A DNA stretch of 43,095 nucleotides from a virus: UHGV virus genome UHGV-1678524. The stretch is one strand, 5' to 3'. The notes below the pieces were generated by a model. That model was not told where the DNA came from. It worked only from the letters and a program-made list of their open reading frames with translations, and ran no database searches. Both the position numbers and the translations under genes were made by a program. This document shows, piece by piece, positions 1 through 43,095 of the stretch; position 1 is the first letter of the stretch; each line of letters starts with the position of its first letter.

Positions 1-173
1 TACAGATAAACTTCTGTATCGGTCTCATATGCTTTTGGGTAAAGTTTAGAAATCTTGTCAGCGATACCTGCACCCATTAAATTCATACAGTTGCAACCGT
101 GACCAATGATGTCAAACTTACCTTTATCAAATGCGGCAAAGATATCGCCATTGATGATTTTTACAATACCCAT
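1..173 (-). CDS. Macro-domain protein, Poa1p-like ADP-ribose-1''-phosphate phosphatase family; N-terminal 57 aa only, gene runs off the window start
   Basis: Reverse-strand translation from ATG at 173: MGIVKIINGDIFAAFDKGKFDIIGHGCNCMNLMGAGIADKISKLYPKAYETDTEVYL. HGCNC...GAGIA...YPKA matches the yeast Poa1p-type macro signature (HSCNCNGSWGGGIA...YPKA) as recalled. Confidence 0.45.
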   Translation of the reverse strand, partial: MGIVKIINGDIFAAFDKGKFDIIGHGCNCMNLMGAGIADKISKLYPKAYETDTEVYL

Positions 174-374
174 TTAACATCTCTCCCAAGATTCTTTATC
201 TTCTGAAGGTTTTACACGTTGCCCTTCATGGTCTACCCAGATGCACCCACAACCTTCACAGATTACTGGCATTGCATAGCCAGCTTTGAAGTCATCTTCA
301 GTGATAAGACCTTTCAAATCACCTGTATCACGTCCGAACATTTCGATAGAACAGTCTTTGCAGAAGTCAGCCAT
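174..374 (-). CDS. Small Cys-rich protein, putative zinc ribbon
   Basis: 66 aa with CxxC ... CxGCGC pattern; tightly packed with flanking genes. Confidence 0.4.
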   Translation of the reverse strand: MADFCKDCSIEMFGRDTGDLKGLITEDDFKAGYAMPVICEGCGCIWVDHEGQRVKPSEDKESWERC

Positions 375-386
375 ATAATATACACC

Positions 387-614
387 TTATAGTTCAGTTT
401 CTCGTAATTCTTTACCTTCATCATAGAAGCATTTATAGAATGTATCTATAGAAATTCTGGCAAAGGTAAGGTCTTCAAAGTATTCTTCTGGAGTTATCCC
501 TGTAAAACTAAAACTATCGAGATTGTAAAATGGTATCACTGTGTTGTTACTAACGAAAACACATGCTGATGTAACTTCTCCAGTGTCTTTATCAATTACC
601 TCTAGAGCTTTCAT
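387..614 (-). CDS. Hypothetical protein
   Basis: 75-aa ORF co-oriented in a compact minus-strand gene array. Confidence 0.35.
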   Translation of the reverse strand: MKALEVIDKDTGEVTSACVFVSNNTVIPFYNLDSFSFTGITPEEYFEDLTFARISIDTFYKCFYDEGKELRETEL

Positions 615-915
615 AGCTTACCTTTTCGGTTAGTTCATATAAATCAACATGCTCAATACTGTCAATGTTGATATCAATCTTTTTGAAACGTTCTATCACT
701 TCGTTGTCAGTCATCCATATTAGACACCAATGGTTGTGTATGGACTCTTCAAGAAGGTCAACACAATCTTTAAAAGTCTTTGTGTCACTCCTTGTTCCGA
801 CTACTGCGATTGTTCCATACAACCACTTGCCATTACCATAAGATACTTGTGCTACGCCAACTTCTTTATCTTTCTCGTAGTAAACGGCTACAAAGTCTCT
901 TCCATTAATCTGCAT
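592..915 (-). CDS. Hypothetical protein
   Basis: 107-aa ORF, co-oriented; small overlap with neighbour. Confidence 0.35.
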   Translation of the reverse strand: MQINGRDFVAVYYEKDKEVGVAQVSYGNGKWLYGTIAVVGTRSDTKTFKDCVDLLEESIHNHWCLIWMTDNEVIERFKKIDINIDSIEHVDLYELTEKVSYESSRGN

Positions 916-917
916 AG

Positions 918-1187
918 TTACTTCCTCGTTTTAAGAACTGCTAAGATTTCTTTAGAGTCTGGTAAGAACCATGTGTAGTGATTCTCTTTGATTTCTGGAT
1001 GAGTGTCAACCTTTATTTTGCACTCTTTACCAACATGCTTAAGTTGTGCTGTGATACCTTGCATAAAAATATGACACATCACATTATCCATAATGGTTGG
1101 TGAGAAATCAATCCGCATATAAGTTTCTTTTGGCCGTGGTAGCAGTAAGTATCCTTCTACATAGAAAGTATCTTCATTCTCTGTCAT
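918..1187 (-). CDS. Hypothetical protein
   Basis: 89-aa ORF; ATGA-type stop/start overlap with the upstream gene at 1184-1187. Confidence 0.35.
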   Translation of the reverse strand: MTENEDTFYVEGYLLLPRPKETYMRIDFSPTIMDNVMCHIFMQGITAQLKHVGKECKIKVDTHPEIKENHYTWFLPDSKEILAVLKTRK

Positions 1188-1453
1188 TGCTGTTTGTTTC
1201 CTAATAAAATCATATCAATAAGGTTATTAGCTTTGATTGTGCACTGGTAAAAACCATCACGATAAAACTCAAGGGCTGCTGCCACATCACTACCGGTATT
1301 ACCTTTGACAGTGAATCTTGACTCCTCTTGAGTGTACTTGTCACTCTCACTTACTTGGGAGTTTTTGAATGTACTGTTCACTTTGTTCGTTGAACACCCT
1401 GACATAATTATCAGTAACACAAATATTATAAAACTCTGGCTTAGTTTTTTCAT
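1184..1453 (-). CDS. Putative lipoprotein, possible outer-membrane spanin (Rz1-like)
   Basis: N-terminus MKKLSQSFIIFVLLIIMSGC looks like a signal peptide with lipobox-like MSGC; its 5' end lies in another frame inside the 3' end of the upstream TM-protein gene. Confidence 0.35.
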   Translation of the reverse strand: MKKLSQSFIIFVLLIIMSGCSTNKVNSTFKNSQVSESDKYTQEESRFTVKGNTGSDVAAALEFYRDGFYQCTIKANNLIDMILLGNKQQ

Positions 1454-1694
1454 ATGTTAGTACCTCTTTTGTATGCTTATTCTTAGCAAGCACATCTTTC
1501 AAATCATTTTTGTAATTGGTGCTGAGTGTGGCTAAACCTTCCTGATAAGCATCTTTAGCAACACTTATTAGTTTCTCATTGTTTAGTTCAGTTTCAGCAA
1601 CTTGATAGTCTCTGTAAGAGTATCCTCCCCAGACACCTGCTCCAACTAAGAAAACAATTATGAAAGTAGCTTGACAGAACTCTTTAAATGTCAT
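1347..1694 (-). CDS. Putative inner-membrane spanin-like protein (N-terminal TM helix plus charged periplasmic region)
   Basis: 115 aa; hydrophobic N-terminus FIIVFLVGAGVWGGY then charged, helix-prone sequence; overlaps the lipoprotein gene by about 107 nt. Confidence 0.35.
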   Translation of the reverse strand: MTFKEFCQATFIIVFLVGAGVWGGYSYRDYQVAETELNNEKLISVAKDAYQEGLATLSTNYKNDLKDVLAKNKHTKEVLTYEKTKPEFYNICVTDNYVRVFNEQSEQYIQKLPSK

Positions 1695-1710
1695 TTAACA
1701 ATCTCCTGAA

Positions 1711-1737
1711 ATGAAAAAGGCTCCCGAAGGAGCCTGT
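1711..1737 (-). terminator. GC-rich hairpin plus U-tract (rho-independent terminator-like) on minus strand
   Basis: AGGCTCC-cgaa-GGAGCCT at 1718-1735; minus-strand transcript has the hairpin followed by UUUUUCAUUU. Confidence 0.45.
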
Positions 1738-1746
1738 ATCTTAACC

Positions 1747-2211
1747 TTAACCGAGGACTTTAGCAAGGACATTTGCAGCCATCGAAGAAGCTTTTGCAGC
1801 AGCAGCTACCCCAGCTTTGATAGCATTATCCTTGATAGCAGATACCGTTGCAGCATCAGTAAAGAGATAAGTAGTTGTTTTAGAACCACTTGTAAAGGAA
1901 AGCATAAGAGCAGTTTCCAGATTGAAAGAGCGATACGGAGCACCTTCTTTAACGATACCTTCAGCACCTAACTCTGAAGCCATACCCATATCATAGATAG
2001 TCATCAGGTTTTCTTTGTGTGCAGTCGTTGAACCAGCACCTTTGACGTGTTTCTTAACATTCAGAAGAGCACGGTACTCTCGGATGTTACCATCTGCTTT
2101 CACATTAACAGCACGGAATATTTTACCCTCAAAGTTGCTTTTGATAATGTTACGAACTACTTCAGATTTGTTTGCCGTAACGTCCAGTGCTACCGTAATG
2201 ATATTGTTCAT
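1747..2211 (-). CDS. Hypothetical protein
   Basis: 154-aa ORF with Ala-rich C-terminus; no recognisable motif. Confidence 0.4.
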   Translation of the reverse strand: MNNIITVALDVTANKSEVVRNIIKSNFEGKIFRAVNVKADGNIREYRALLNVKKHVKGAGSTTAHKENLMTIYDMGMASELGAEGIVKEGAPYRSFNLETALMLSFTSGSKTTTYLFTDAATVSAIKDNAIKAGVAAAAKASSMAANVLAKVLG

Positions 2212-2221
2212 AAGTTTTCTC

Positions 2222-2917
2222 TCAATGTTTAACTAACATGGTTTTAATGTGTGGAAGGATTCTGTTTACCTTCTGAACATTCTTCTCTGTATCTTCTATA
2301 AAGCATACTATATTAAAGTAAGGAAGAATGCAAGACTGAATCATCCTAACTTTCAAACTTTCTGCATTTATAGAGTTAGTCCCAAAACCACGCATAAAAA
2401 GCATGTAATCATGCTCTATGTTATGCCTTAAAAACATCTCAGTAGGTATTCTCTGGGATTCACCTCTCGCTGTCAAGAGTCCAATGGCAGCGTGATTAGC
2501 AATTGCATCAATAATACTAAAAACATACGTTGGTTTTGCTCTTACAGAGTCAAGAAGATTAGTGTACTGTGAGAATGACCCGTCAGTCAATTCCGTTGAG
2601 CAATCTTCGTGATTAAAATTTGTAAGAACACCATCAATATCTGCTAAGATGAGGTTACCTTTTTCTACTAGGTCTTTATTGACTATGACTAAACTGTCAC
2701 GTCTTACACCTATAGATTGTCCAGTCTCTTTGTCCACAACGTTCACAATCGGTTCTGGTGTGTGGAACTCTTCAAGTGAACATACAACTTCTCTTGCAGT
2801 GTCTTCAAAATCCCTGCACTGTTCTGGAGTCCATATACAGGAATCAAGACCTAACTCATGAGGATGCAAGTCGTAAGCATGACACAGTACTTCATCAGAC
2901 TTTCTTAATTTTTTCAT
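2222..2917 (-). CDS. Putative HAD-superfamily hydrolase domain protein (possible nucleotidase/phosphatase)
   Basis: LILADIDGVLTNF resembles HAD motif I (DxDGT/V). Confidence 0.3.
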   Translation of the reverse strand: MKKLRKSDEVLCHAYDLHPHELGLDSCIWTPEQCRDFEDTAREVVCSLEEFHTPEPIVNVVDKETGQSIGVRRDSLVIVNKDLVEKGNLILADIDGVLTNFNHEDCSTELTDGSFSQYTNLLDSVRAKPTYVFSIIDAIANHAAIGLLTARGESQRIPTEMFLRHNIEHDYMLFMRGFGTNSINAESLKVRMIQSCILPYFNIVCFIEDTEKNVQKVNRILPHIKTMLVKH

Positions 2918-3443
2918 GATTTACCTTAGAAATGTTTGTTGCAAATTCACATTGAGCAATGACTTTCATATTGTTATAGACATCTTGAGAGTATTTCTTA
3001 GCTTTAGGAATTTTGTACGAATACCCAGCATTATATGATGCTAAAACTTTTTGTAAAGTCTTCTTTGACTTTGGCTGACCATGTACCTTCGTCCAAAATT
3101 CAAGCTCTTTGTGTGTTTCCTTTGCAGCATAGTCAAAATCTTTTAAGAGTTTCTTTTTAGCCACATTAGGACTGATTTTGTTACGCTTTACAACAGTCTT
3201 CAAGTGATTCTGGAAGATACCATAATCATGTGTCTTTTTATTCTCTACATTCAGACCTAACTCTGACTCTTGTAAGGCTATAGCAGCTAGAGTGATACCC
3301 CAACCTTTACCCATATTATTCTCACCATACTGGTAAGCTTTTAACATGTTTACTTTTTGGCTAATTGATAGCTCTGGGCAGTCAACTGCATAAGATAAGT
3401 GTGCTGTAAACATTAAGCACAAACCTAGAATCAACTTCTTCAT
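2895..3443 (-). CDS. Lytic transglycosylase (SLT domain) with N-terminal signal peptide; candidate secreted endolysin or murein hydrolase
   Basis: MKKLILGLCLMFTAHLSYA signal peptide; SLT-like motifs ALQESELG, DYGIFQ, SYNAGYS. Confidence 0.55.
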   Translation of the reverse strand: MKKLILGLCLMFTAHLSYAVDCPELSISQKVNMLKAYQYGENNMGKGWGITLAAIALQESELGLNVENKKTHDYGIFQNHLKTVVKRNKISPNVAKKKLLKDFDYAAKETHKELEFWTKVHGQPKSKKTLQKVLASYNAGYSYKIPKAKKYSQDVYNNMKVIAQCEFATNISKVNHEKIKKV

Positions 3444-3502
3444 TGGTTCTCCTGTTTAGTTTATCGTGACAACAATTATACAGCACTCTGCACAAAATAC
3501 AA

Positions 3503-3532
3503 ATAAAAAAGGCCGCCGAAGCAGCCTTTTAA
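3503..3532 (-). terminator. Hairpin plus U-tract, minus strand
   Basis: GGCCGC-cgaa-GCAGCC at 3511-3526 (one G-U pair on the transcript) flanked by A-run and T-run. Confidence 0.4.
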
Positions 3533-3543
3533 GAAATTACTTA

Positions 3544-4653
3544 TTAGATTTCACGTTTACGTTGAGAGATGAGTTCACCAGCAGTGCCAACGATGACATG
3601 CAAAGCTTCAGTCTTACCATCCCATGCTTTCAGCACTTTACGTTGATTATCAACGATTGCTGCAACTTCATAACGGGATGAACGCATCTTCATATCATTA
3701 TAATCAGTTGGAACAGCTACAACATCTCGTGGATGGACACGAACCTTCAGGATTGTATCACCTGAGAAGCAACGAACGTAATCCCAAGCACCAACATGAA
3801 GACCTTGAGAACAAGTTACGTTACGGTTATTATCAACCATCCAACGTGGCATCTCTACAATATTACCCAAATCATTAGGTACTTTGTAGGTGCGGGAATC
3901 AACCAGCTTGCATTCATGAGTAGAGACTTTCTTCCAGCCAATGATGTAACCTTCTTCATCAATTTCAACATCAAGGTGGGATACGAATCCCCAAAGTTGT
4001 TCTACAGAATCTTTAGATGGGTTTTCCATCAGTTTTTCGAAGAACATTACAAGTCGTTCAAAACCTTTATCACCAGTCTTCATCATATGGAGAATACGGT
4101 CAACCAGAGTAGAACGCATCTCAACAGCACCGTAGAATAACTTGTCACCTTTGATTGTGATAGCACCATGAGTGAAGTTCTCGATAGACTTACGAATGTT
4201 CATCAGTTCGAAAGCTTTCTTGTACTCACCACCTACAACAGCCATTACAATTTCTTTGTAGTTCGGATGGGTAGACTCAACGATTTCAGAATCTGCACCG
4301 AAAGTCATGATAACAGAATCGCCAGTAATCATGTACTCAATCTGGTTACCATTCTGCATAGCTTCGTGTAGTTTATTTACCGGAGCCTTTTGTACAGCCT
4401 CTTTAACAACCTTTTCAACTGGTTTTCCAGCTTTCTTTTTAACTGATTTAGCAACTTGCTTCAAAGTCTTCGTAGCTGGTTTAGAAGTTGCCTTTTTCTT
4501 ACCTTTTAAGGTTGCTTCATGACGCTCTACAGCACGACCAACTGAACGGGTTGAAGTATTGAACTTCTGTGCAATAGCTGTTTTAGTCAGCTTACCTTCT
4601 TTAACCAGTTTGTAAATTTCTGCGTCAATCTGTGCTTTAGTTTTAGTAGTCAT
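3544..4653 (-). CDS. rIIB: rIIB-like protein (N-terminal HTH-like segment, Lys-rich linker)
   Basis: Immediately downstream of the rIIA-like gene, as in T4; size and order fit. Assigned by synteny, not a diagnostic motif. Confidence 0.4.
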   Translation of the reverse strand: MTTKTKAQIDAEIYKLVKEGKLTKTAIAQKFNTSTRSVGRAVERHEATLKGKKKATSKPATKTLKQVAKSVKKKAGKPVEKVVKEAVQKAPVNKLHEAMQNGNQIEYMITGDSVIMTFGADSEIVESTHPNYKEIVMAVVGGEYKKAFELMNIRKSIENFTHGAITIKGDKLFYGAVEMRSTLVDRILHMMKTGDKGFERLVMFFEKLMENPSKDSVEQLWGFVSHLDVEIDEEGYIIGWKKVSTHECKLVDSRTYKVPNDLGNIVEMPRWMVDNNRNVTCSQGLHVGAWDYVRCFSGDTILKVRVHPRDVVAVPTDYNDMKMRSSRYEVAAIVDNQRKVLKAWDGKTEALHVIVGTAGELISQRKREI

Positions 4654-33950: not shown

Positions 33951-35051
33951 ATGACAACACTGTACAAACAAAATAAAGATGGCTCTTTCAACGTCTGGTC
34001 ATGTACTGCTGTAGGTGACAAAGTTATTACAACCTACGGTAAAGAAAATGGCAAGATGATGTTTGAAGAGTATACAGCAGAACCTAAAAACATTGGTAAA
34101 AAGAATGAGCGTAATGCTGAACAGCAAGCTCTCTTTGAAGTTGCTGCTAAGTATAAAAAGCAAGTTGACCGCAAAGGTTATGCTTACACAAAAGAGTCTG
34201 CACAGAATACTGAGAAGGTAGGTGTACAGCTTGCTCATGATGCTGCAAAGGTTAGTCATGCAAAGTATCTGAAGTTCCCTGCTGATGCTCAACCGAAGCT
34301 TGATGGTGTTCGTTGTAGAATTTCAAGAGATGCTAATTCAGTTAACTTCACGGCTTATTCTCGTGAGAATACTGTTTACAGCGTTCCAGAAGAGCTAATC
34401 CCAGATTTACTTTTGTTGCTAAAACTTCATCCACAAGTTGAAGACTTTGATGGTGAGATTTATGCTCATGGTTGGGACTTAGAAGATATTGTATCCATGA
34501 TTAAGAATGTTGACAATCCAGACCGTAACCTTCTTAAATTCTACTGGTATGATATCTGTGACAATTCAAAATCTTGGCCTGAGCGTCGTGAAGTTATTGA
34601 TAGTTCACCTATTGTTGAGCTTGGGGATACCTGTAGAGTGGTTCCTGTACAGACTATCCGTGTAAATTCTTGGGAAGAGTTTGATGAAGCCCATGATAAG
34701 TGGGTTGAAGCTCAGTTTGAAGGTGCAATGTACCGTTCAATCTCTGAAGACTCATTCTATGAGTGTTGTCACCGTTCATACTTCTTGATTAAGCACAAGA
34801 AGATGCACACTGAAGAGTTTAAAGTGACTGGTGTAAAGACTGATAAACGTGGTCATGGTAAGTTCGTTGTAGAGACTCTTCCTAACGTCTTTGTAGATGT
34901 CTCATGGAAGACTACTCATGAGAAGAAACAGTATCTTGCTGAGCATCCTGATGAGTTTATCGGGAAGCCTTTAACAGTACAGTTCCAGAAGATGACTCGT
35001 AAGGGTTCTTTACAGTTCCCTGTCGGGCTAGTTATTAGGGATTATGAGTAA
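33951..35051 (+). CDS. ATP-dependent DNA ligase
   Basis: Start at MTTLYKQ (RBS GAGGAA upstream); KxDG adenylation motif in QPKLDGVRCR; size typical of T7-type phage ligases. Confidence 0.75.
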   Translation: MTTLYKQNKDGSFNVWSCTAVGDKVITTYGKENGKMMFEEYTAEPKNIGKKNERNAEQQALFEVAAKYKKQVDRKGYAYTKESAQNTEKVGVQLAHDAAKVSHAKYLKFPADAQPKLDGVRCRISRDANSVNFTAYSRENTVYSVPEELIPDLLLLLKLHPQVEDFDGEIYAHGWDLEDIVSMIKNVDNPDRNLLKFYWYDICDNSKSWPERREVIDSSPIVELGDTCRVVPVQTIRVNSWEEFDEAHDKWVEAQFEGAMYRSISEDSFYECCHRSYFLIKHKKMHTEEFKVTGVKTDKRGHGKFVVETLPNVFVDVSWKTTHEKKQYLAEHPDEFIGKPLTVQFQKMTRKGSLQFPVGLVIRDYE

Positions 35052-35054
35052 ACT

Positions 35055-35201
35055 ATGTTAAGTACAATCATTCTGTTTGCATTAGTTGTCTTTGTGTTGT
35101 CTTACATCACAAGTAAACTTTTGAACACATCCTTTGCAATGGGTGTTTTGTTCACAATCTTTTGTTTTGTAACACATATAGCTATCAGGACTTTTATATA
35201 A
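35055..35201 (+). CDS. Small hydrophobic membrane peptide (48 aa, absent from ORF track)
   Basis: Manual translation MLSTIILFALVVFVLSYITSKLLNTSFAMGVLFTIFCFVTHIAIRTFI; two predicted TM segments; starts 4 nt after the ligase stop. Confidence 0.25.
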   Translation: MLSTIILFALVVFVLSYITSKLLNTSFAMGVLFTIFCFVTHIAIRTFI

Positions 35202-35208
35202 AAAGTTG

Positions 35209-35236
35209 TTGACATAGAAAATTTGGTGAGTATACT
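35209..35236 (+). promoter_or_regulatory. Near-consensus sigma70-like promoter
   Basis: TTGACA (35209-35214)-16 nt-TATACT (35231-35236); followed by an 8-bp inverted repeat GGTGAGTA...TACTCACC. Confidence 0.4.
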
Positions 35237-35310
35237 GAGCAGCATAAACCAACGGGTACTCACCAGCATCACTTAAGAGTCTTCTAAGAGGGTTTTTAAG
35301 TGATGTTCTG

Positions 35311-35490
35311 TAGGGTTAGGTTCGGTTTGGTATGGTCTGGTATGGCTGGGTTGGGTCTGGTTTGGTGAGGGTAGTTAGTCTCAACTACATTAAAATGAGA
35401 CTTACCTTTTTAAAAGGTCTTTAAAGAGGGTCTTTTAATAAGGCGGGGTGCGGCTCGGTCTGGTTGTGTGATGTTCGGCTTGGTTAGGTA
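35311..35490 (+). repeat. Degenerate GT-rich short-period repeats (GGTNTGGT-like units) in a non-coding region
   Basis: Tracts such as GGTTAGGTTCGGTTTGGTATGGTCTGGTATGGCTGGGTTGGGTCTGGTTTGGTGAGGG and GGCTCGGTCTGGTTGTGTGATGTTCGGCTTGGTTAGG; no ORF; between hairpins. Confidence 0.4.
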
Positions 35491-35549
35491 ATGTATGGAA
35501 GGATGGCAGTAGCCTTATAAAAAATCTGCCAAATAAGCTATAAAATCTG

Positions 35550-35578
35550 TTGACAAGTCAGGTGTTATAGCTTATTTT
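35550..35578 (+). promoter_or_regulatory. Sigma70-like promoter candidate upstream of the 35623 operon
   Basis: TTGACA (35550-35555)-17 nt-TATTTT; RBS GAGG precedes ATG at 35623. Confidence 0.3.
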
Positions 35579-35622
35579 TATACTCAATGTAATACAAAAT
35601 TTAATATAACTTTGAGGTCATT

Positions 35623-36006
35623 ATGAAAAAGATTTTATTAGCTGCTGCAATGGTTATGGCAATGAATTTACCAGTCAATGCAACAGAACTCCCAAATGTG
35701 GACTTGTCAGGTGTTCCAGAAGATACTTGCCAGATTGTAAAAGGTGTTGCTCTAGCTAATGGTGAGCTACTGAAACCAATCTCTGAAGAGTCTTTAACAG
35801 AGATGACTGATAAGGTAACTGACTATCAGTATCGTGTTCTTGCAGAGTATTTCCTACAATCTGCAAACATTAAAGAGAAACACCATGATGATATTGATGT
35901 ACAGGCTATGCTCAACCATCGTATCCAGTTTAAAGAAGATTTGATGCAAAAAGCTATGTATGGTGTTGAGTATTTCTTAGAAAACAGAAGCTGCACAGGT
36001 ATTTGA
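35623..36006 (+). CDS. Secreted/periplasmic protein with signal peptide
   Basis: MKKILLAAAMVMAMNLPVNA signal-peptide-like N-terminus. Confidence 0.45.
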   Translation: MKKILLAAAMVMAMNLPVNATELPNVDLSGVPEDTCQIVKGVALANGELLKPISEESLTEMTDKVTDYQYRVLAEYFLQSANIKEKHHDDIDVQAMLNHRIQFKEDLMQKAMYGVEYFLENRSCTGI

Positions 36007-36007
36007 T

Positions 36008-36220
36008 ATGGCTCTTAAAAAGTTACATCCCAGAAGTGGTTATGGTAAGATAATTGACGATACAGACGGCTTTACAGTCTTTACAGTCATCTGTCAAGAT
36101 GATTCACAGATTGAAAAGGCTCTTGACGATTATCTTAACGATGAACGTGAAAAGATTAGGGCTACAAACATAGATTCATTGATTGACACTTCACGCAAAC
36201 GGAAGAAGAAAGATGGATGA
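36008..36220 (+). CDS. Hypothetical protein
   Basis: 70-aa ORF. Confidence 0.35.
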   Translation: MALKKLHPRSGYGKIIDDTDGFTVFTVICQDDSQIEKALDDYLNDEREKIRATNIDSLIDTSRKRKKKDG

Positions 36221-36512
36221 GGTTTTTGACCCTTATGCCCCACAAGATGATTGGGAGGCTGATAGAGAGGCTGAAATGGAGAGTTATGTTTGTCCAATGA
36301 ATGTAGACGAAATGAGAGACTTCGTTGCACATCGTTTTAAGAGAGAGATTAAATCCAGAGGTCTTTCTCAAGAGCAAGTTGCTAAAATTTGTGGTATCTC
36401 TCAGTCTCGTGTATCCAACATAATCCATCTCACTGGTAACGTCTCCCTTGAGTATATGTTGGAAGTGTGTGAAAAATTTGGTGTTAATTTCAATTTAAGG
36501 TTGGCAGATTAA
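36213..36512 (+). CDS. Helix-turn-helix DNA-binding protein (start likely at MDEVFDP)
   Basis: C-terminal LSQEQVAKICGISQSRVSNII resembles an XRE-type HTH. Confidence 0.4.
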   Translation: MDEVFDPYAPQDDWEADREAEMESYVCPMNVDEMRDFVAHRFKREIKSRGLSQEQVAKICGISQSRVSNIIHLTGNVSLEYMLEVCEKFGVNFNLRLAD

Positions 36513-36513
36513 T

Positions 36514-36873
36514 ATGAAACGTGAAAACATTATCCACTCTGAAAACTTCGCATTAGGCTTTTATGGCGTACCAACTCACCTTGAAAAGTATTATGGTGTG
36601 AAGATTCTCTCCAATCTCATTATGGCTTACAAAGATGGTAAGATTAAGCATACTGAGAAGAAACGTGTCATGGGTTATATGTCTGTAGGTTCAGCAATCT
36701 CAAACATTAAGCTAGAAACAACTAGCAGTCAGATTGTGAAAGACCACTTCATCAAAGAGCTTTACCAGAATCTTGATGGTGTAGATGTTCAGGCTGTTTG
36801 GTTGGATGTTGATGGTCACAACTACACAAGTTTTGTTTTCAAAAACGACGACATTAAGTGTCTGTTCCCATAA
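36514..36873 (+). CDS. Hypothetical protein
   Basis: 119-aa ORF. Confidence 0.35.
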   Translation: MKRENIIHSENFALGFYGVPTHLEKYYGVKILSNLIMAYKDGKIKHTEKKRVMGYMSVGSAISNIKLETTSSQIVKDHFIKELYQNLDGVDVQAVWLDVDGHNYTSFVFKNDDIKCLFP

Positions 36874-36886
36874 TAGGTGATTAACT

Positions 36887-37402
36887 ATGATTGATGTCTA
36901 CTTACAAGATGCTCATGCAAATTTCCTTAAAGAGATGCTTAAAAAGTTTATGGCTTCACAGTATGAGAATGAAGCATCTTTTAAAATAGTTACATGTGGC
37001 GATGAAGCTGGCTTTGTTGAGATTGAACATGAAGGTACTGGAAAGACTGTTTGTAAGCTACCTGATAGTATGTTCTCTAGCACATTCTTAACAAAGACTA
37101 GTATAAATGTTAAGCTTGTGCCTCAGATTGAAACATACTCTGGTACAGATTATCCTAAAGGTTTTAAGTCATTGATGAAGTACTTCTTAGATGACTTTGT
37201 GAGTAATCTTCTGAGGGAGGTAAAAGAAAGTCGTACAGTGTTGACTGTAGAGAACATGGGAGGAACTATCAAGGTCACTTCTGACTGTTTTGTTATGAGT
37301 CTCTTCGACTTCGTTCCTAAGAACTTTGATGGTATTCTGGATGAAGAAGATGACTGTGTAGACTTTATATTGGCTCTTGAGCCAGTTTTTGAGGTTAAAT
37401 AA
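36887..37402 (+). CDS. Hypothetical protein
   Basis: 171-aa ORF. Confidence 0.35.
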   Translation: MIDVYLQDAHANFLKEMLKKFMASQYENEASFKIVTCGDEAGFVEIEHEGTGKTVCKLPDSMFSSTFLTKTSINVKLVPQIETYSGTDYPKGFKSLMKYFLDDFVSNLLREVKESRTVLTVENMGGTIKVTSDCFVMSLFDFVPKNFDGILDEEDDCVDFILALEPVFEVK

Positions 37403-37663
37403 ATGAAAATTGAACACTGCTATGAGTCTGATGGAACACCTATCAGATGTCCACATTGTGGGTGTACAGACTTACAAGGTGAGGTAAGTGAAATAGTCAA
37501 CGGTCATATTGCTGAAGAAAGTACCCGATGCACAGGGTGTAATGAAATTATCGCTTTCTGGGCTTATGGTTCATACCAACCATCTCCACATTTTATCTAC
37601 CATCGTAGTGAAGTTGTGAAGAGTGTCATTAACTGGTTCATTAAGAAAGGGTTTACAAAATGA
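37403..37663 (+). CDS. Small zinc-ribbon protein
   Basis: CPHCGC ... CTGC cysteine pairs. Confidence 0.35.
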   Translation: MKIEHCYESDGTPIRCPHCGCTDLQGEVSEIVNGHIAEESTRCTGCNEIIAFWAYGSYQPSPHFIYHRSEVVKSVINWFIKKGFTK

Positions 37664-38205
37664 TTAAGCTAATATTTGCAAGTGGTGAAAATGGTGAGTT
37701 TGGTACTCCAACTGGTATGCCGTGGCCTCGACATAAACAGGACATGCAAGAGTTTAAGAGACTCACTAAAAACAACTTAGTGGTAATGGGTAATGAGACT
37801 TTTAAGACTCTGGGTAGTAAACCTTTACCAGAACGTGCAAACCTCATCTTAACAAATTCTGTACCATACTTAGGCATAGACTTTGGCAAAGATGATGTAA
37901 TGTATGCTAAAGCCAGTAAAGAGTCATTTGGAGCATTTTTGAAGTATCTTGATAGCTCTATTGATGAAGATGTCTTTGTAATTGGTGGTGCAGGTGTCCT
38001 TGTCAATGCTTTACCGTATGCTAGTGTGGTGTTCCATACTGTTTTCCATAAAGTTACTGAAGAGGCCACTGTGCATTTACCTTTTGAAAACTTCTTTGAT
38101 AAACTGTATGATAGCCGTGTATTTGCAAAGGTGCAGTCAAGACCCTCAGATGATGGTAAAGCAACCTTTGAGATTTATGTTCCACAAGTAAAAGGGCACT
38201 TTTGA
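37660..38205 (+). CDS. frd: Dihydrofolate reductase
   Basis: N-terminus IKLIFASGENGEFGTPTGMPW and VVMGNETFKTLG match the DHFR fold (cf. E. coli FolA MISLIAALA...MPW ... VIMGRHTWESIG); immediately upstream of thymidylate synthase. Confidence 0.75.
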   Translation: MIKLIFASGENGEFGTPTGMPWPRHKQDMQEFKRLTKNNLVVMGNETFKTLGSKPLPERANLILTNSVPYLGIDFGKDDVMYAKASKESFGAFLKYLDSSIDEDVFVIGGAGVLVNALPYASVVFHTVFHKVTEEATVHLPFENFFDKLYDSRVFAKVQSRPSDDGKATFEIYVPQVKGHF

Positions 38206-38206
38206 T

Positions 38207-39106
38207 ATGTCACAAGCTGATTTGAGCTACAAAAATATTCTGAACCATGTTTTATCCGTTGGTGAACTGCGTACTACACGAACTGGAGATGTTATCTCTG
38301 CATTTGCTCCACCAAAATTTCGTTTTGATATGCGTACTGGTTTCCCACTCTTAACATCTAAACAGGTGTTTACACGGCAAGTTATTGGGGAAGCTTTATG
38401 GTTCCTGAATGGTGAGAATAAACTTGGTGAACTCCGTTATCGCACTTGGGGTGAAAATGATGGGGAACGCTGGACTATCTGGTCAGATGATTTTAAACGC
38501 TGGTTAAGCTCTAATTATTCTTCTGAACAAGATTGGTTAGAAGATGCAGGCGGGAGAATCTACGGTGTTCAGTGGAGAAACTTTGAAGGTCATAATGGTT
38601 GTGTTGTAGACCAGTTAGAGACCTTAGTAGCGAAGATGAAAGGTGATATCACAGACCGCTACATGCTTGTTAATGCTTGGAATGCAGCAGATATTGCAGC
38701 TAACTCGATGGCTTTAGCACCTTGCCATGTTCTGTTTCAGATTTATATCACTAACGAAGGTGAAGTTGACTTACAATGGTATCAACGTTCTGTAGACACC
38801 TTTTTAGGACTTCCATTTAATATTGCGTCTTATGGTTTTATTCTGGAAGTTCTTTGTAAGATGACTGGATACACACCACGATACTTGATAGGTGTCTTTG
38901 GGGATACTCAGATTTATCAGAATCATATGAAGCAGGTTTATGAACTGATGAACAACGAAGAGTTCCATGCACCTACTTTTGAGATTGGTGTACCACTTAA
39001 CACTTTAAGTGACTTAAAACATCTTACTGCAAGTGACTTTATTGGTGGCATTAACAACTACCAACATGCAGGAAAGATTGAAGCACCTTTGTCAGTAGGT
39101 AAGTAA
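38207..39106 (+). CDS. td: Thymidylate synthase
   Basis: RTGDVISAFAPPKFRFDMRTGFPLLTSK (cf. ThyA [28 protein letters not shown]) and active-site PCH in APCHVLFQIY. Confidence 0.85.
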   Translation: MSQADLSYKNILNHVLSVGELRTTRTGDVISAFAPPKFRFDMRTGFPLLTSKQVFTRQVIGEALWFLNGENKLGELRYRTWGENDGERWTIWSDDFKRWLSSNYSSEQDWLEDAGGRIYGVQWRNFEGHNGCVVDQLETLVAKMKGDITDRYMLVNAWNAADIAANSMALAPCHVLFQIYITNEGEVDLQWYQRSVDTFLGLPFNIASYGFILEVLCKMTGYTPRYLIGVFGDTQIYQNHMKQVYELMNNEEFHAPTFEIGVPLNTLSDLKHLTASDFIGGINNYQHAGKIEAPLSVGK

Positions 39107-39107
39107 A

Positions 39108-39148
39108 ACAAAAAAGGCTCCCGTAAGAAGGAGCCTTAAAATTTTATT
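39108..39148. terminator. Bidirectional rho-independent terminator between convergent gene blocks
   Basis: AAGGCTCC-cgtaagaa-GGAGCCTT at 39114-39137 flanked by an A-run upstream and T-run downstream. Confidence 0.55.
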
Positions 39149-39515
39149 TTTCAGTATTCTTTGTGTTCTTCTCAGTAATAGCTTGGAGGGCTGATACTGA
39201 TTGAGCCAGATTATTCACACTGTCAGAGAATTTATCAAGAGTTTTGGTAAGTTTTGCATTCTCACCCTTAACATTCTCTAACTGAACTTTCTGGTTCTCC
39301 ATCCCTAGCTGAATCAGTCTCATGTCAGACTGTAAATCACGAATAGCTGAATAGTTACTTTTGGAATAATTATCTAGCTGCTGTAACTTTGTTGTGACAG
39401 ACACTTCTTGCTTACCACTTGAAACTTGCATAGTGGTATACATCCCAATAACACTAAAAATACCAACTACAATTGCACCAATATTATTTTTAAAAGCTTC
39501 CTCTAGCCACTTCAT
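39144..39515 (-). CDS. Membrane protein with N-terminal TM helix and coiled-coil region (holin- or spanin-like candidate)
   Basis: NNIGAIVVGIFSVIGMYTTM hydrophobic segment then heptad-rich polar sequence. Confidence 0.3.
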   Translation of the reverse strand: MKWLEEAFKNNIGAIVVGIFSVIGMYTTMQVSSGKQEVSVTTKLQQLDNYSKSNYSAIRDLQSDMRLIQLGMENQKVQLENVKGENAKLTKTLDKFSDSVNNLAQSVSALQAITEKNTKNTEK

Positions 39516-39710
39516 TTATTTCTCCCCCTTAAAAGCTTTTTCTAAGTTATCTACGAACTCATCATCAATAGGCGTGTCTGTTTTACTCGCAAGGTATCTT
39601 GCAAGCTTAAAGAACACTTTCTCAATCATGTATTCACTTAGAAGGGATAAAATGAGTTTCCAGAAGAAGCTACCTAGATTTTTTAGAAGAATTGCTAGGA
39701 TTGTAGGCAT
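39516..39710 (-). CDS. Small hydrophobic protein
   Basis: 64 aa, hydrophobic N-terminal half. Confidence 0.3.
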   Translation of the reverse strand: MPTILAILLKNLGSFFWKLILSLLSEYMIEKVFFKLARYLASKTDTPIDDEFVDNLEKAFKGEK

Positions 39711-39789
39711 TTAATCACCTCATCAGCCAAGATGGTGAGAATACCCATAAAGAATATTAACACCATCTTAACAATCAGTCAACAATGGA

Positions 39790-42321
39790 TTAAGCAGTTC
39801 TTACCCAAGCCATTAACTTGTAGAACTGGTTAGTAACGCTAAATGCTGACCCAGAACCTGCACCACCAGTGTTACCACTTACTGTATGGCTGTGAGCACC
39901 AATACCAACACTGTGAGCATGGTCACCAGCATAGGCGGCAGTACCACTAATTGAATGCGCGTGGTCACCACCCCCATCAGTGTAACCCGGACCTGTACCG
40001 ATTCTACCACCACCACCACCAGAATAGTGTGTAGAGTTCTGACCAATCCACGAGATAGCGTGGTTGTGGTGACCAGCAGATGAAGTAGAGCCACTTACAG
40101 AGTGAGCGTGAGAACCAGTCGTGTTAGTGCTTTTTGTTCCGTAGTCAAAAGATGAAGTGGTAGCAGAAAAACTGTGCGTGTGTGAAGGCAAGTTCCCAAC
40201 AGCTAACGTCACAGAGTCTGAACCACCAGTTGTAGCAACATCTGAACCATTTGCTGCTGCAATTCTGATAGTTCTACCAACACCATTGTTGAGGTACGTC
40301 CAAGTTAGACCAGGCAGTGCTGTATTAGGGTCAACATTACTGTTAAACCATGTCACAATACCCACTGGATAGATTTTATTAAGGTCTGTAGAGTCACTTA
40401 CTGCCTGTGCAATCTTCTGGTCAGTTTCAGCTTTAGTGTATGCACCAATATCTGAAGGGGTTGGCTTCAAGAGACTAGTGTAATAGTAAGCAAGTATACC
40501 AGCAACATAGCCATCCGGAGCGGTATCGGATGTCTCTGGAGTCTCAAACAGTTGTACTGTTGCATTAGATGATGACTGAACCCTAGCTGTCGTAGCGTTT
40601 TGGTAGTTACCAACTACGCAATAAATGTCATAGTTATCACCAGATGTATTAACATACCCAATTTGATTTACAACATAATTTGGTGAGTTTTTCCATGCGA
40701 CAACATTTAAGCCTTTCGGTCTACCATTTCCTGCTCTGAGAACAATTTCCGTTTTACAAGCTTGGTCAACTATACCGTAGTTGAACCCAGACCCACCAAA
40801 CAGTTCAATCACTGCTGTTGATGTGCCTTGCGGCATATTAACAGTGGCAATTTTAGCCCATTTATTAACACCACTAGTATTGAATCCAGTGCTTCTTACT
40901 CTCAGATATCTATTATCGGCAGAAGTTTTATTATAATATCTGTCGTCAATGTTACTCCAATCAGAAGGTTGAACTCGACCATTGATTCTAACAGTTTTAT
41001 TTAGAAAAAAGCCATCTTGCATAAAAAGAGTGGTCCCAGTTTTATCATTGTGGATAATGAGTTTAGATGGGTTTTCTCTCTCGCCATTCCCGATGAACCA
41101 CCTTCTCACATTATCAGCGTTATAACCAGCAAAGTATAGTGCATTATCCTGAACAGTGTTTCTTAGCTGTAACGATAGGTCATCTTGGGTAATAACTTGT
41201 GTAGACCTGAAAATGTTCATGTTACTGAGTTTAGCAAGATTACTCAAAGTTCCTGCTGGAATGTATCTAGAATCAATGTTAGTCCAGTCAGAAGGTTGTA
41301 CTTGACCAGTGATTTTGACAGTCTTACTAAATGTTACACCAGACGCGTTTAATTTAATGGAAGTGTCCCCCTTGTAATCATAAATTGTGATATTAGAGGT
41401 TACATCACCTTTACCAATATACCACAAATTATTGTTTTCACTGTCCTTTGCTAGGATGAACAGAGTCTCATTGACCGTTTTATTTTTTAGAGTGATAGCA
41501 GCACCATCAGAGTTCACATTGACATTATTACTGAATGTGTTTAAACCACTGAAGGTATTATTACCAACTAGCTGCGCAAATCTCTGATTAGCTGCTGTCT
41601 GAGTAAAGTATCTAGCATCTAAGTTAGAGAAGTCAGAAGGCTGAACTTGACCAGTGATTGCTAAAGACTTATTAACAGAGATATTGCTTGCAACAATCAC
41701 TGCTGAGTTGTATTTGCTGTTATACAGGCTTACTGCATCCTCGCCATTGCTACCAATACCAACCCACCATCTAGCTGAACCATCTAGGTTTACACCCTCA
41801 ATGTATTGTGCATTATTTGCAATCTGGTTTCTAAGGCGAAGTGCATTACCATCACTTTGAATGTTCTGATTTCTAGAGAATGTGTTTGTTACAGCAAGCC
41901 TTGCATATCTTGCATCGTTCTCTTCATTGGTTCTCATTCCAAGCTCATTAGGACTTGGCTTATTCAAAGTGTGGTAAACAGTTGCAGACCTTGAAGCATC
42001 TGCAATAGTTAGTCTAAGACCGTTTGCGTTGATTTTAAAAGTCTTTAAAACATCCCCCATAGTAATCTCAGAAGAGTCTGTAGGGTCAAATACGGCCTTA
42101 CCACCATAAAGTAACTTGACAATTCCTAAGTCACCCGTCATAGTGCTACCAGCAATCTGGACAAATCTTTCTAGTTTAAAAGATGCTAAGAAGTCTTGAT
42201 AGGTCATTCGACGGTCTTCATCACCCAGCATTTCAGGTCTCTTTTTAACCCTGACATGAAGAAGGTCGTCTGAACGAATTGTATCAATTGAGTTTAATTC
42301 ACTCAACTTGTAATCTGCCAT
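39790..42321 (-). CDS. Tail fibre protein with internal tandem domain repeats and His-rich C-terminal receptor-binding-type domain
   Basis: 843 aa; repeated GQVQPSD(F/W)(S/T)N(L/I)DxRY modules; C-terminal HxH-rich segment (HTHS, HAHS, HHNH, DHAHS, AHSHT) ending AFSV...WVRTA. Confidence 0.7.
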   Translation of the reverse strand: MADYKLSELNSIDTIRSDDLLHVRVKKRPEMLGDEDRRMTYQDFLASFKLERFVQIAGSTMTGDLGIVKLLYGGKAVFDPTDSSEITMGDVLKTFKINANGLRLTIADASRSATVYHTLNKPSPNELGMRTNEENDARYARLAVTNTFSRNQNIQSDGNALRLRNQIANNAQYIEGVNLDGSARWWVGIGSNGEDAVSLYNSKYNSAVIVASNISVNKSLAITGQVQPSDFSNLDARYFTQTAANQRFAQLVGNNTFSGLNTFSNNVNVNSDGAAITLKNKTVNETLFILAKDSENNNLWYIGKGDVTSNITIYDYKGDTSIKLNASGVTFSKTVKITGQVQPSDWTNIDSRYIPAGTLSNLAKLSNMNIFRSTQVITQDDLSLQLRNTVQDNALYFAGYNADNVRRWFIGNGERENPSKLIIHNDKTGTTLFMQDGFFLNKTVRINGRVQPSDWSNIDDRYYNKTSADNRYLRVRSTGFNTSGVNKWAKIATVNMPQGTSTAVIELFGGSGFNYGIVDQACKTEIVLRAGNGRPKGLNVVAWKNSPNYVVNQIGYVNTSGDNYDIYCVVGNYQNATTARVQSSSNATVQLFETPETSDTAPDGYVAGILAYYYTSLLKPTPSDIGAYTKAETDQKIAQAVSDSTDLNKIYPVGIVTWFNSNVDPNTALPGLTWTYLNNGVGRTIRIAAANGSDVATTGGSDSVTLAVGNLPSHTHSFSATTSSFDYGTKSTNTTGSHAHSVSGSTSSAGHHNHAISWIGQNSTHYSGGGGGRIGTGPGYTDGGGDHAHSISGTAAYAGDHAHSVGIGAHSHTVSGNTGGAGSGSAFSVTNQFYKLMAWVRTA

Positions 42322-42335
42322 TATAAATTTTCCTC

Positions 42336-42360
42336 TAAAAAGGGGCTATACAGCCCCTGT
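42336..42360 (-). terminator. Hairpin plus U-tract between the two tail-fibre genes
   Basis: GGGGCT-atac-AGCCCC at 42342-42357; minus transcript followed by UUUUUAGAGGAAAA (includes the RBS of the 843-aa gene). Confidence 0.4.
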
Positions 42361-42367
42361 AAAGAAA

Positions 42368-43071
42368 TTAAGCTGTTCTCTGCCATACATACAATACGAA
42401 GGATGGCTGTTCAACACTAAATGCTTGACCAGAACCAGTTGGACCAGTTGTGCCAGAGTGCGAATGCTCACCTGCTCCGGTTACTGTTACTGTTGCTGAG
42501 TGGCTGTGGGAACCAATTGCAACAGAATGGCTGTGAGCACCAATACCAACCGTATGATTATGCGCACCAATTGCTACAGAGTGAGTGTGGTTGTTAGCTG
42601 TTGTCAACGTAGCTCTTGGGTCATAGCTTGCCCCCTCAACCGATAAACCTCTCCAGCCACCATCATCATAGCCACGGTTAATGAATGTTGTTTGTGTTAA
42701 GCCAGCGGCACTTGTTGTTCTGTTGCCATAGTCGTAAGTAGATACGGTCTTGGTTCCGTAGTCAAACGTTGTAGTCCCTTTAGTGCCATAATCAAAAGCA
42801 CTGATAGAGGCCGTTGCACCATGAGTGTGACCACCACCAGTGACATACACTGAGTGGGTATGTGCAGGGATGTTATTAACCGTCAGTGCAGTAGTCTGTG
42901 AACCAAACGTTGAACCAACTGGCCTAGAATCACTATCATAACCTACAAGTGCTCTCCCTTTTGAGACTAACTCCCAAGTACCTCCACAAATTAAATATGT
43001 AGAAGGGTTTGCAGAGTTCATGGAAAGATGGATAGTACCTACTGGATAGGAAGCCTGAACAGCCTTGTACA
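42368..43071 (-). CDS. Tail fibre protein, C-terminal fragment; 5' end truncated by the contig/adapter boundary
   Basis: Shares the C-terminal domain with the 843-aa fibre (YPVG..., FDYGTK, HxH repeats, GSGQAFSV...WQRTA); track start codon is a TTG artefact and upstream sequence is adapter. Confidence 0.6.
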
Positions 43072-43095
43072 AGATCGGAAGAGCACACGTCTGAA
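43072..43095. other. Illumina TruSeq adapter remnant (sequencing/assembly artefact)
   Basis: AGATCGGAAGAGCACACGTCTGAA matches the start of the TruSeq read-1 adapter AGATCGGAAGAGCACACGTCTGAACTCCAGTCA. Confidence 0.85.

Follow-up and report, generated by a model that had tools for sequence, protein, structure and literature searches.

Residual adapter at the ends of assembled contigs is a known class of contamination. The 24-mer considered here, with which the Illumina TruSeq read-1 adapter begins, is carried by at least 120 IMG/VR viral contigs (L031-L150), and among the IMG/VR matches listed, 121 of 123 occurrences lie less than 250 nt from the end of the locus and point outward, the median distance to that end being 25 nt. 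At least three IMG/VR loci carry the 24-mer twice; among the matches listed, L074 and L080 have it at both ends. The stretch of DNA analyzed in this work (43,095 nt, referred to below as the window) shows the same geometry of TruSeq read-through at a contig end as those viral contigs, with no essential difference from them; in the case of the window, the first two adapter nucleotides also match the genome by chance.

The window DNA comes from a FelixO1-like coliphage, a myovirus classified in the genus Felixounavirus. Members of this genus have been reported to package their DNA with fixed ends that carry direct repeats (PMC8303462; PMC11737134), and the terminal repeat of Pr103Blw measures 581 bp (PMC8303462). 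Within the window, the gene reached by the adapter has its described counterparts in finno_99 and BARRY_0070, a gene of 1149 nt that likewise lies between the baseplate genes and a larger fibre gene; BARRY_0070 is annotated as similar to the FelixO1 "putative tail fiber protein GP37" (NP_944921). The encoded fibre of 382 aa appears, from sequence homology, to share features with both the tip of T4 gp37 (PDB 2XGF) and the C-terminal domain of T4 gp10 (Pfam PF21939). The T4 gp37 protein has roughly 1000 aa, whereas the fibre of 382 aa is much shorter, and the role of the fibre here is putative.

Source contig, phage identity and other assemblies

An exact look-up of the adapter-containing partial product of 241 aa returned one record, and the window proved to be the complete contig NODE_296_length_43095_cov_4.532319 of ENA ERZ1304533; therefore, the adapter sits at a true contig end. 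The last 3728 bases of this contig (L151) are identical to window 39368-43095, and the k-mer coverage of the NODE_296 assembly is just 4.5x (cov_4.53).

When window 1-4000 and 39000-43095 were used as queries, both ends matched about 260 phage records, chiefly from Escherichia and Salmonella phages and mostly of 84-89 kb, with identities of up to 96% (left) and 95% (right). Felixounavirus genomes have about 87 kb, and positions 7910-51664 of Salmonella phage BPS17W1 are collinear with the window, which therefore covers about half a genome; the annotated region of finno is collinear with window 34863-43073 and that of Barry with window 35405-43073. The relatives align from window base 1, and the left end is free of adapter; there, a phosphatase gene (window 1-173, minus strand; phrog_335, 5e-27), present with its first 57 codons, runs off the contig. 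No tRNA gene was detected by ARAGORN in the window; the tRNA cluster of Felixounaviruses would accordingly be located in the half of the genome that the contig lacks. The unannotated record "Campylobacter phage A132" (MG065664, 70.7 kb) also matches the window DNA, with 90% identity over 82% of the query, and one "Staphylococcus" and one "Listeria" record likewise match this enterobacterial Felixounavirus DNA; the records bearing these three names are probably mislabelled or contaminated.

The same phage is found, with 100% identity, in at least four other public assemblies (ENA ERZ28599375, ENA ERZ27263527, JGI 3300056420 and Logan ERR260238). The run ERR260238 is taken here to belong to ERP002469, the type-2-diabetes gut cohort of European women (Karlsson 2013), an assumption based on the "KARL13" label of a scaffold and on the range of the accession; in a literature search on the run, sample and analysis accessions, the study ERP002469 was the sole one mentioned. 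The labelled scaffold, scaffold_269 of ENA ERZ28599375 (KARL13-1_SAMEA1906497; L003), has the same first base as the window, shows one difference from it in 13,284 bases, and crosses the junction into an ORF of 382 aa. The other assemblies are more fragmented still than the window: a MEGAHIT-style contig of 4490 nt corresponds to window 38582-43071 and a JGI contig to window 38586-43069; a JGI contig and a Logan contig from ERR260238 both have an end at window base 11, further breaks occur at window 5994, 8899 and 38582, and the scaffolds of two other assemblies contain gaps of 10 N. The contig ends of several assemblies thus fall within 0-4 nt of one position near 43071, which would point to something systematic if the libraries were independent. 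Nevertheless, because of the 100% identity, the shared breakpoints, the coverage (cov_4.53) and the N gaps, the other assemblies are probably re-assemblies of one thin, low-coverage read set. The name k119 of one contig suggests reads of at least 119 nt. A second strain in a JGI contig (L007) was considered and rejected, since its "10 mismatches plus a gap" correspond to the 10-N scaffold gap.

The adapter and its junction with the phage genome

The final 24 bases of the window (43072-43095, plus strand) read AGATCGGAAGAGCACACGTCTGAA and show 24/24 exact identity to the start of the TruSeq read-1 adapter. When both strands of the window were searched with up to 3 mismatches, this was the single site of the 24-mer, and no match was obtained in 100 dinucleotide-preserving shuffles of the window. 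The 13-mer core, AGATCGGAAGAGC, has its sole exact copy at the 3′ end; a second match, at 1919, has 2 mismatches and is at chance level (two or more matches were obtained in 8 of 100 shuffles), and apart from it no adapter was detected in the left end and the interior of the window with the 13-mer core at up to 2 mismatches. The adapter is oriented outward, at the extreme end of the source contig of 43095 bases. A literature text match retrieved 996 papers containing a 33-mer that opens with these 24 bases, and this 33-mer is the TruSeq read-1 adapter supplied to trimming programs. In summary, positions 43072-43095 are leftover sequencing adapter, an assembly artefact that holds no biological novelty. 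An earlier note on this DNA had identified the last 24 nt as the start of the TruSeq read-1 adapter, left untrimmed at a contig end; the complete match, the empty shuffles and the identity of the window with an entire contig all bear the identification out.

The junction was compared among 25 related loci, comprising finno, Barry, scaffold_269 and 22 further Felixounavirus contigs gathered from metagenome and IMG/VR collections with a 30-mer from just past the junction. These loci read ...CCTTGTACAAG up to the boundary and TTATTTACTG... directly after it, corresponding on the gene strand to ...AATAACTTGTACAAGG... in 25/25, and the adapter 13-mer is present in 0/25. The description of the 24 bases in the earlier note as not biology was therefore well founded, since all 25 loci, including scaffold_269 from the same phage, continue without adapter. 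The junction 28-mer of genome and adapter had no exact match in IMG/VR or in JGI metagenome contigs.

The relatives are identical to the window through 43073 and diverge from 43074; finno and Barry, for instance, align through 43073 and continue as TTATTTACTGCTCTTGC..., versus ATCGGAAGAGC... in the window. Because the AG at 43072-43073 fits the adapter and the genome alike, as an overlap of 2 nt, the boundary could on homology alone be placed anywhere over 43071-43073. Read directly, the sequence at the junction is CA/A/GATCGG (slashes added here). In library preparation, end repair is followed by A-tailing and then by adapter ligation; on the basis of this ligation chemistry, the fragment would have ended at 43071, as one further A would be seen if the insert had stopped at 43072. 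In agreement with this, an identical contig of another assembly (L004) has 43071 as its first base, the very position to which trimming of the adapter would cut such a read back.

A block of about 45 nt, at about window 43027-43071 and continuing at positions 977-1000 of scaffold_269 (L003), is invariant in 25/25 related loci. The truncation point falls inside this block, at the start of the homology to the gp37 tip and Gp10_C, around residues 144-149. The block could represent a conserved linker for swaps of the receptor-binding module; the part downstream is far more variable among the relatives.

The truncated tail-fibre gene

The features at the right end of the window are collected in Table 1.

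Table 1. Features at the 3′ end of the window (positions in the window of 43,095 nt)
Feature	Position	Strand	Description
Second tail-fibre gene, complete, 843 aa	39790..42321	-	Immediately downstream of the truncated gene; gp37_trimer repeats
Tail-fibre gene, 3′ part	42368..43071	-	Codons 149-382 plus stop (42368-42370); Gp10_C domain, T4 gp37-tip-like region, HxH motifs
Spurious "TTG start codon"	43070..43072	-	Start of the ORF list entry 42368..43072; real identity Leu149
Adapter-coded codons	43073..43093	-	Seven in-frame codons, QTCALPI (translation)
Illumina TruSeq read-1 adapter	43072..43095	+	A-tail base plus GATCGGAAGAGCACACGTCTGAA; not phage DNA
Sequence running into the window end			...ACAAGATCGGAAGAGCACACG

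The complete gene in scaffold_269 (L003 558-1706) encodes 382 aa, of which residues 149-382 are kept in the window and residues 1-148 are missing, so that the window holds neither the whole CDS of about 382 aa nor the start codon of the gene. In comparison with finno_99 and BARRY_0070, the window gene lacks codons 1-148 and has the seven adapter-coded codons instead. Codon 149 begins at 43072, scaffold_269 reads AAT AAC TTG TAC AAG around Leu149, and within the seven adapter codons just the last base of the seventh (43073) agrees with the genome. In translation, the minus-strand frame shows no interruption between 43093 and the stop codon at 42368-42370. The earlier note had reported a minus-strand tail-fibre ORF at 42368-43071 that runs into the adapter, so that its apparent start is artefactual and the true N-terminus lies beyond the contig. 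The coordinates are right, with the frame open through the adapter to the stop; the listed TTG is an internal leucine codon of the protein of 382 aa, and the 148 N-terminal residues do lie past the window end. The assignment to a tail fibre is also upheld, by the matches to Pfam Gp10_C and phrog_2097, by that to 2XGF, and by the gene order shared with finno_99 and BARRY_0070. As an observation apart, the partial product of 241 aa, starting with QTCALPI because a gene caller took in the adapter codons, is catalogued in a public gene and protein collection (L151 3-728).

The truncated product matches the Gp10_C domain (PF21939) with 72.8 bits, versus a Pfam cut-off of 27, and an E value of 7e-20, and the tail-fibre family phrog_2097 with 2e-65. 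The match to 2XGF_A (E = 3.5e-14) spans residues 146-352 of the full-length protein of 382 aa and includes the repeated HxH motifs; the N-terminal part of this fibre had no Pfam match. The 772 nt that were kept share 94-99% identity with coliphage relatives, the highest value being that for phage humlepung (99.0%). Position 42666 differs between assemblies: it gives GAT (Asp) in the motif GYDDGGW in the window, L004 and L005, and GCT (Ala) in scaffold_269, finno and L023; this difference may be either a minor population variant or a low-coverage consensus error.

The neighbourhood shows the conserved order of baseplate genes, the fibre of 382 aa, the large fibre, holin and thymidylate synthase. 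The large fibre of 843 aa matches Pfam gp37_trimer (2e-59) and phrog_4277 (E=0), in the gene order of finno_98 and BARRY_0071. Between the stop of the smaller fibre gene and the start of the larger one, a stem-loop (GGGGCT-GTAT-AGCCCC followed by five T) lies at 42340-42362 on the minus strand; the terminator scan left it unflagged.

Origin of the adapter tip and its consequences

Taken together, these data point to the 24 terminal bases as an untrimmed TruSeq adapter, incorporated by the assembler at the end of a metagenomic contig of low coverage, a reading to which a probability of about 0.97 is assigned. Most probably, the adapter tip goes back to a single read from a short insert, which continued into the adapter at a position of thin coverage. 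In this scenario, one library fragment with a length below that of the reads would have ended at 43071; after end repair and addition of an A (43072), GATCGGAAGAGC... would have been ligated, and read 1 would have run through the insert into the adapter. With few reads at the junction, the furthest-reaching of them would have been the short-insert read entering the adapter, and the assembler, having no better-supported path, may have kept the adapter tip; the contig end, 24 bases into the adapter, would then mark where this read stopped. That just 24 adapter nucleotides are present suggests a single read, and the assembly stopped here because coverage was low (4.5x); we infer both the single short-insert read and the thin coverage at the exact junction base. 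The differences among the assemblies may be explained in the same way: where adapters were left untrimmed, the contig would gain 24 bases; where they were trimmed, contigs would end at 43071 or 43069; and a more permissive assembler would have bridged the thin spot.

It is very unlikely that the break arose from ambiguity in the assembly graph, through co-occurring strains or through fibre-gene repeats at a conserved domain linker, with the adapter tip as an incidental addition. The location of the junction in the block invariant among the 25 relatives, at the start of the gp37-tip and Gp10_C homology, would fit such an ambiguity, as would the C-terminal domain (30% amino-acid identity) and the short DNA repeats shared by the two fibre genes, and the one SNP (42666) that separates two assemblies. 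However, no direct or inverted repeat is present at the junction, and an intragenomic repeat was rejected as the cause of the break since the repeats shared by the fibre genes lie 300-500 nt away; the assemblies are otherwise identical, a second strain being barely visible. Moreover, a graph branch would not place the ends produced by different assemblers within 2 nt of the end of an adapter-trimmed read, and the coverage of 4.5x together with the N gaps accounts for the break without it.

That 43071 is a real, recurrent DNA end, such as a terminus of packaging or a break specific to this site in the tail-fibre gene, is extremely unlikely. Contigs of three assemblies end at 43071, 43071 and 43069, adapters ligate to natural ends as well, and Felixounaviruses have been reported to possess fixed ends with direct terminal repeats (PMC8303462; PMC11737134). 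Nevertheless, 43071 lies within a conserved CDS that is continuous in the 25 related loci, many of which belong to contigs or genome records with lengths of about 84-103 kb, and scaffold_269, from the same phage, crosses the site. In Pr103Blw (MW481326), the 581-bp repeat is annotated in two identical copies, and this repeat has no blastn match anywhere in the window; on this ground a physical terminus at the window end was rejected. Both window ends lie inside genes, phosphatase on the left and fibre on the right, and the 3′ end is, by these comparisons, not a genome terminus, so the caution of the earlier note against inferring termini or circular permutation from this end was justified. The recurrence itself would require assemblies from independent libraries, and such independence looks unlikely, since the assemblies are 100% identical and have breakpoints in common (window 1 and 11), as would a single low-coverage read set assembled repeatedly. 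As for a phage or other biological sequence equal to the adapter by chance, the minus-strand frame does stay open through the 24 bases, but for 2 x 43 kb the expected number of exact 24-nt matches is about 3e-10, and a match appeared in 0/100 shuffles; the sequence is absent at this site in the relatives, and the same phage continues differently. A biological origin of the 24 bases is thus refuted by scaffold_269 and the 25 related loci, and chance identity is vanishingly improbable.

The untrimmed adapter therefore bears on the use that can be made of this contig, and the value of the finding is one of data hygiene only. The contig represents about half a genome, neither complete nor circular, and no inference on circularity, permutation or termini should be drawn from its 3′ end. 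In the annotation, the tail-fibre gene model needs a flag as 5′-partial, and neither the TTG start nor the residues QTCALPI should be retained in it; because the recorded product of 241 aa begins with these residues, adapter has been catalogued as protein. The adapter should be trimmed ahead of comparisons of host range or receptor-binding proteins, for which the better copy of the locus is scaffold_269 of ERZ28599375, with the full gene of 382 aa.
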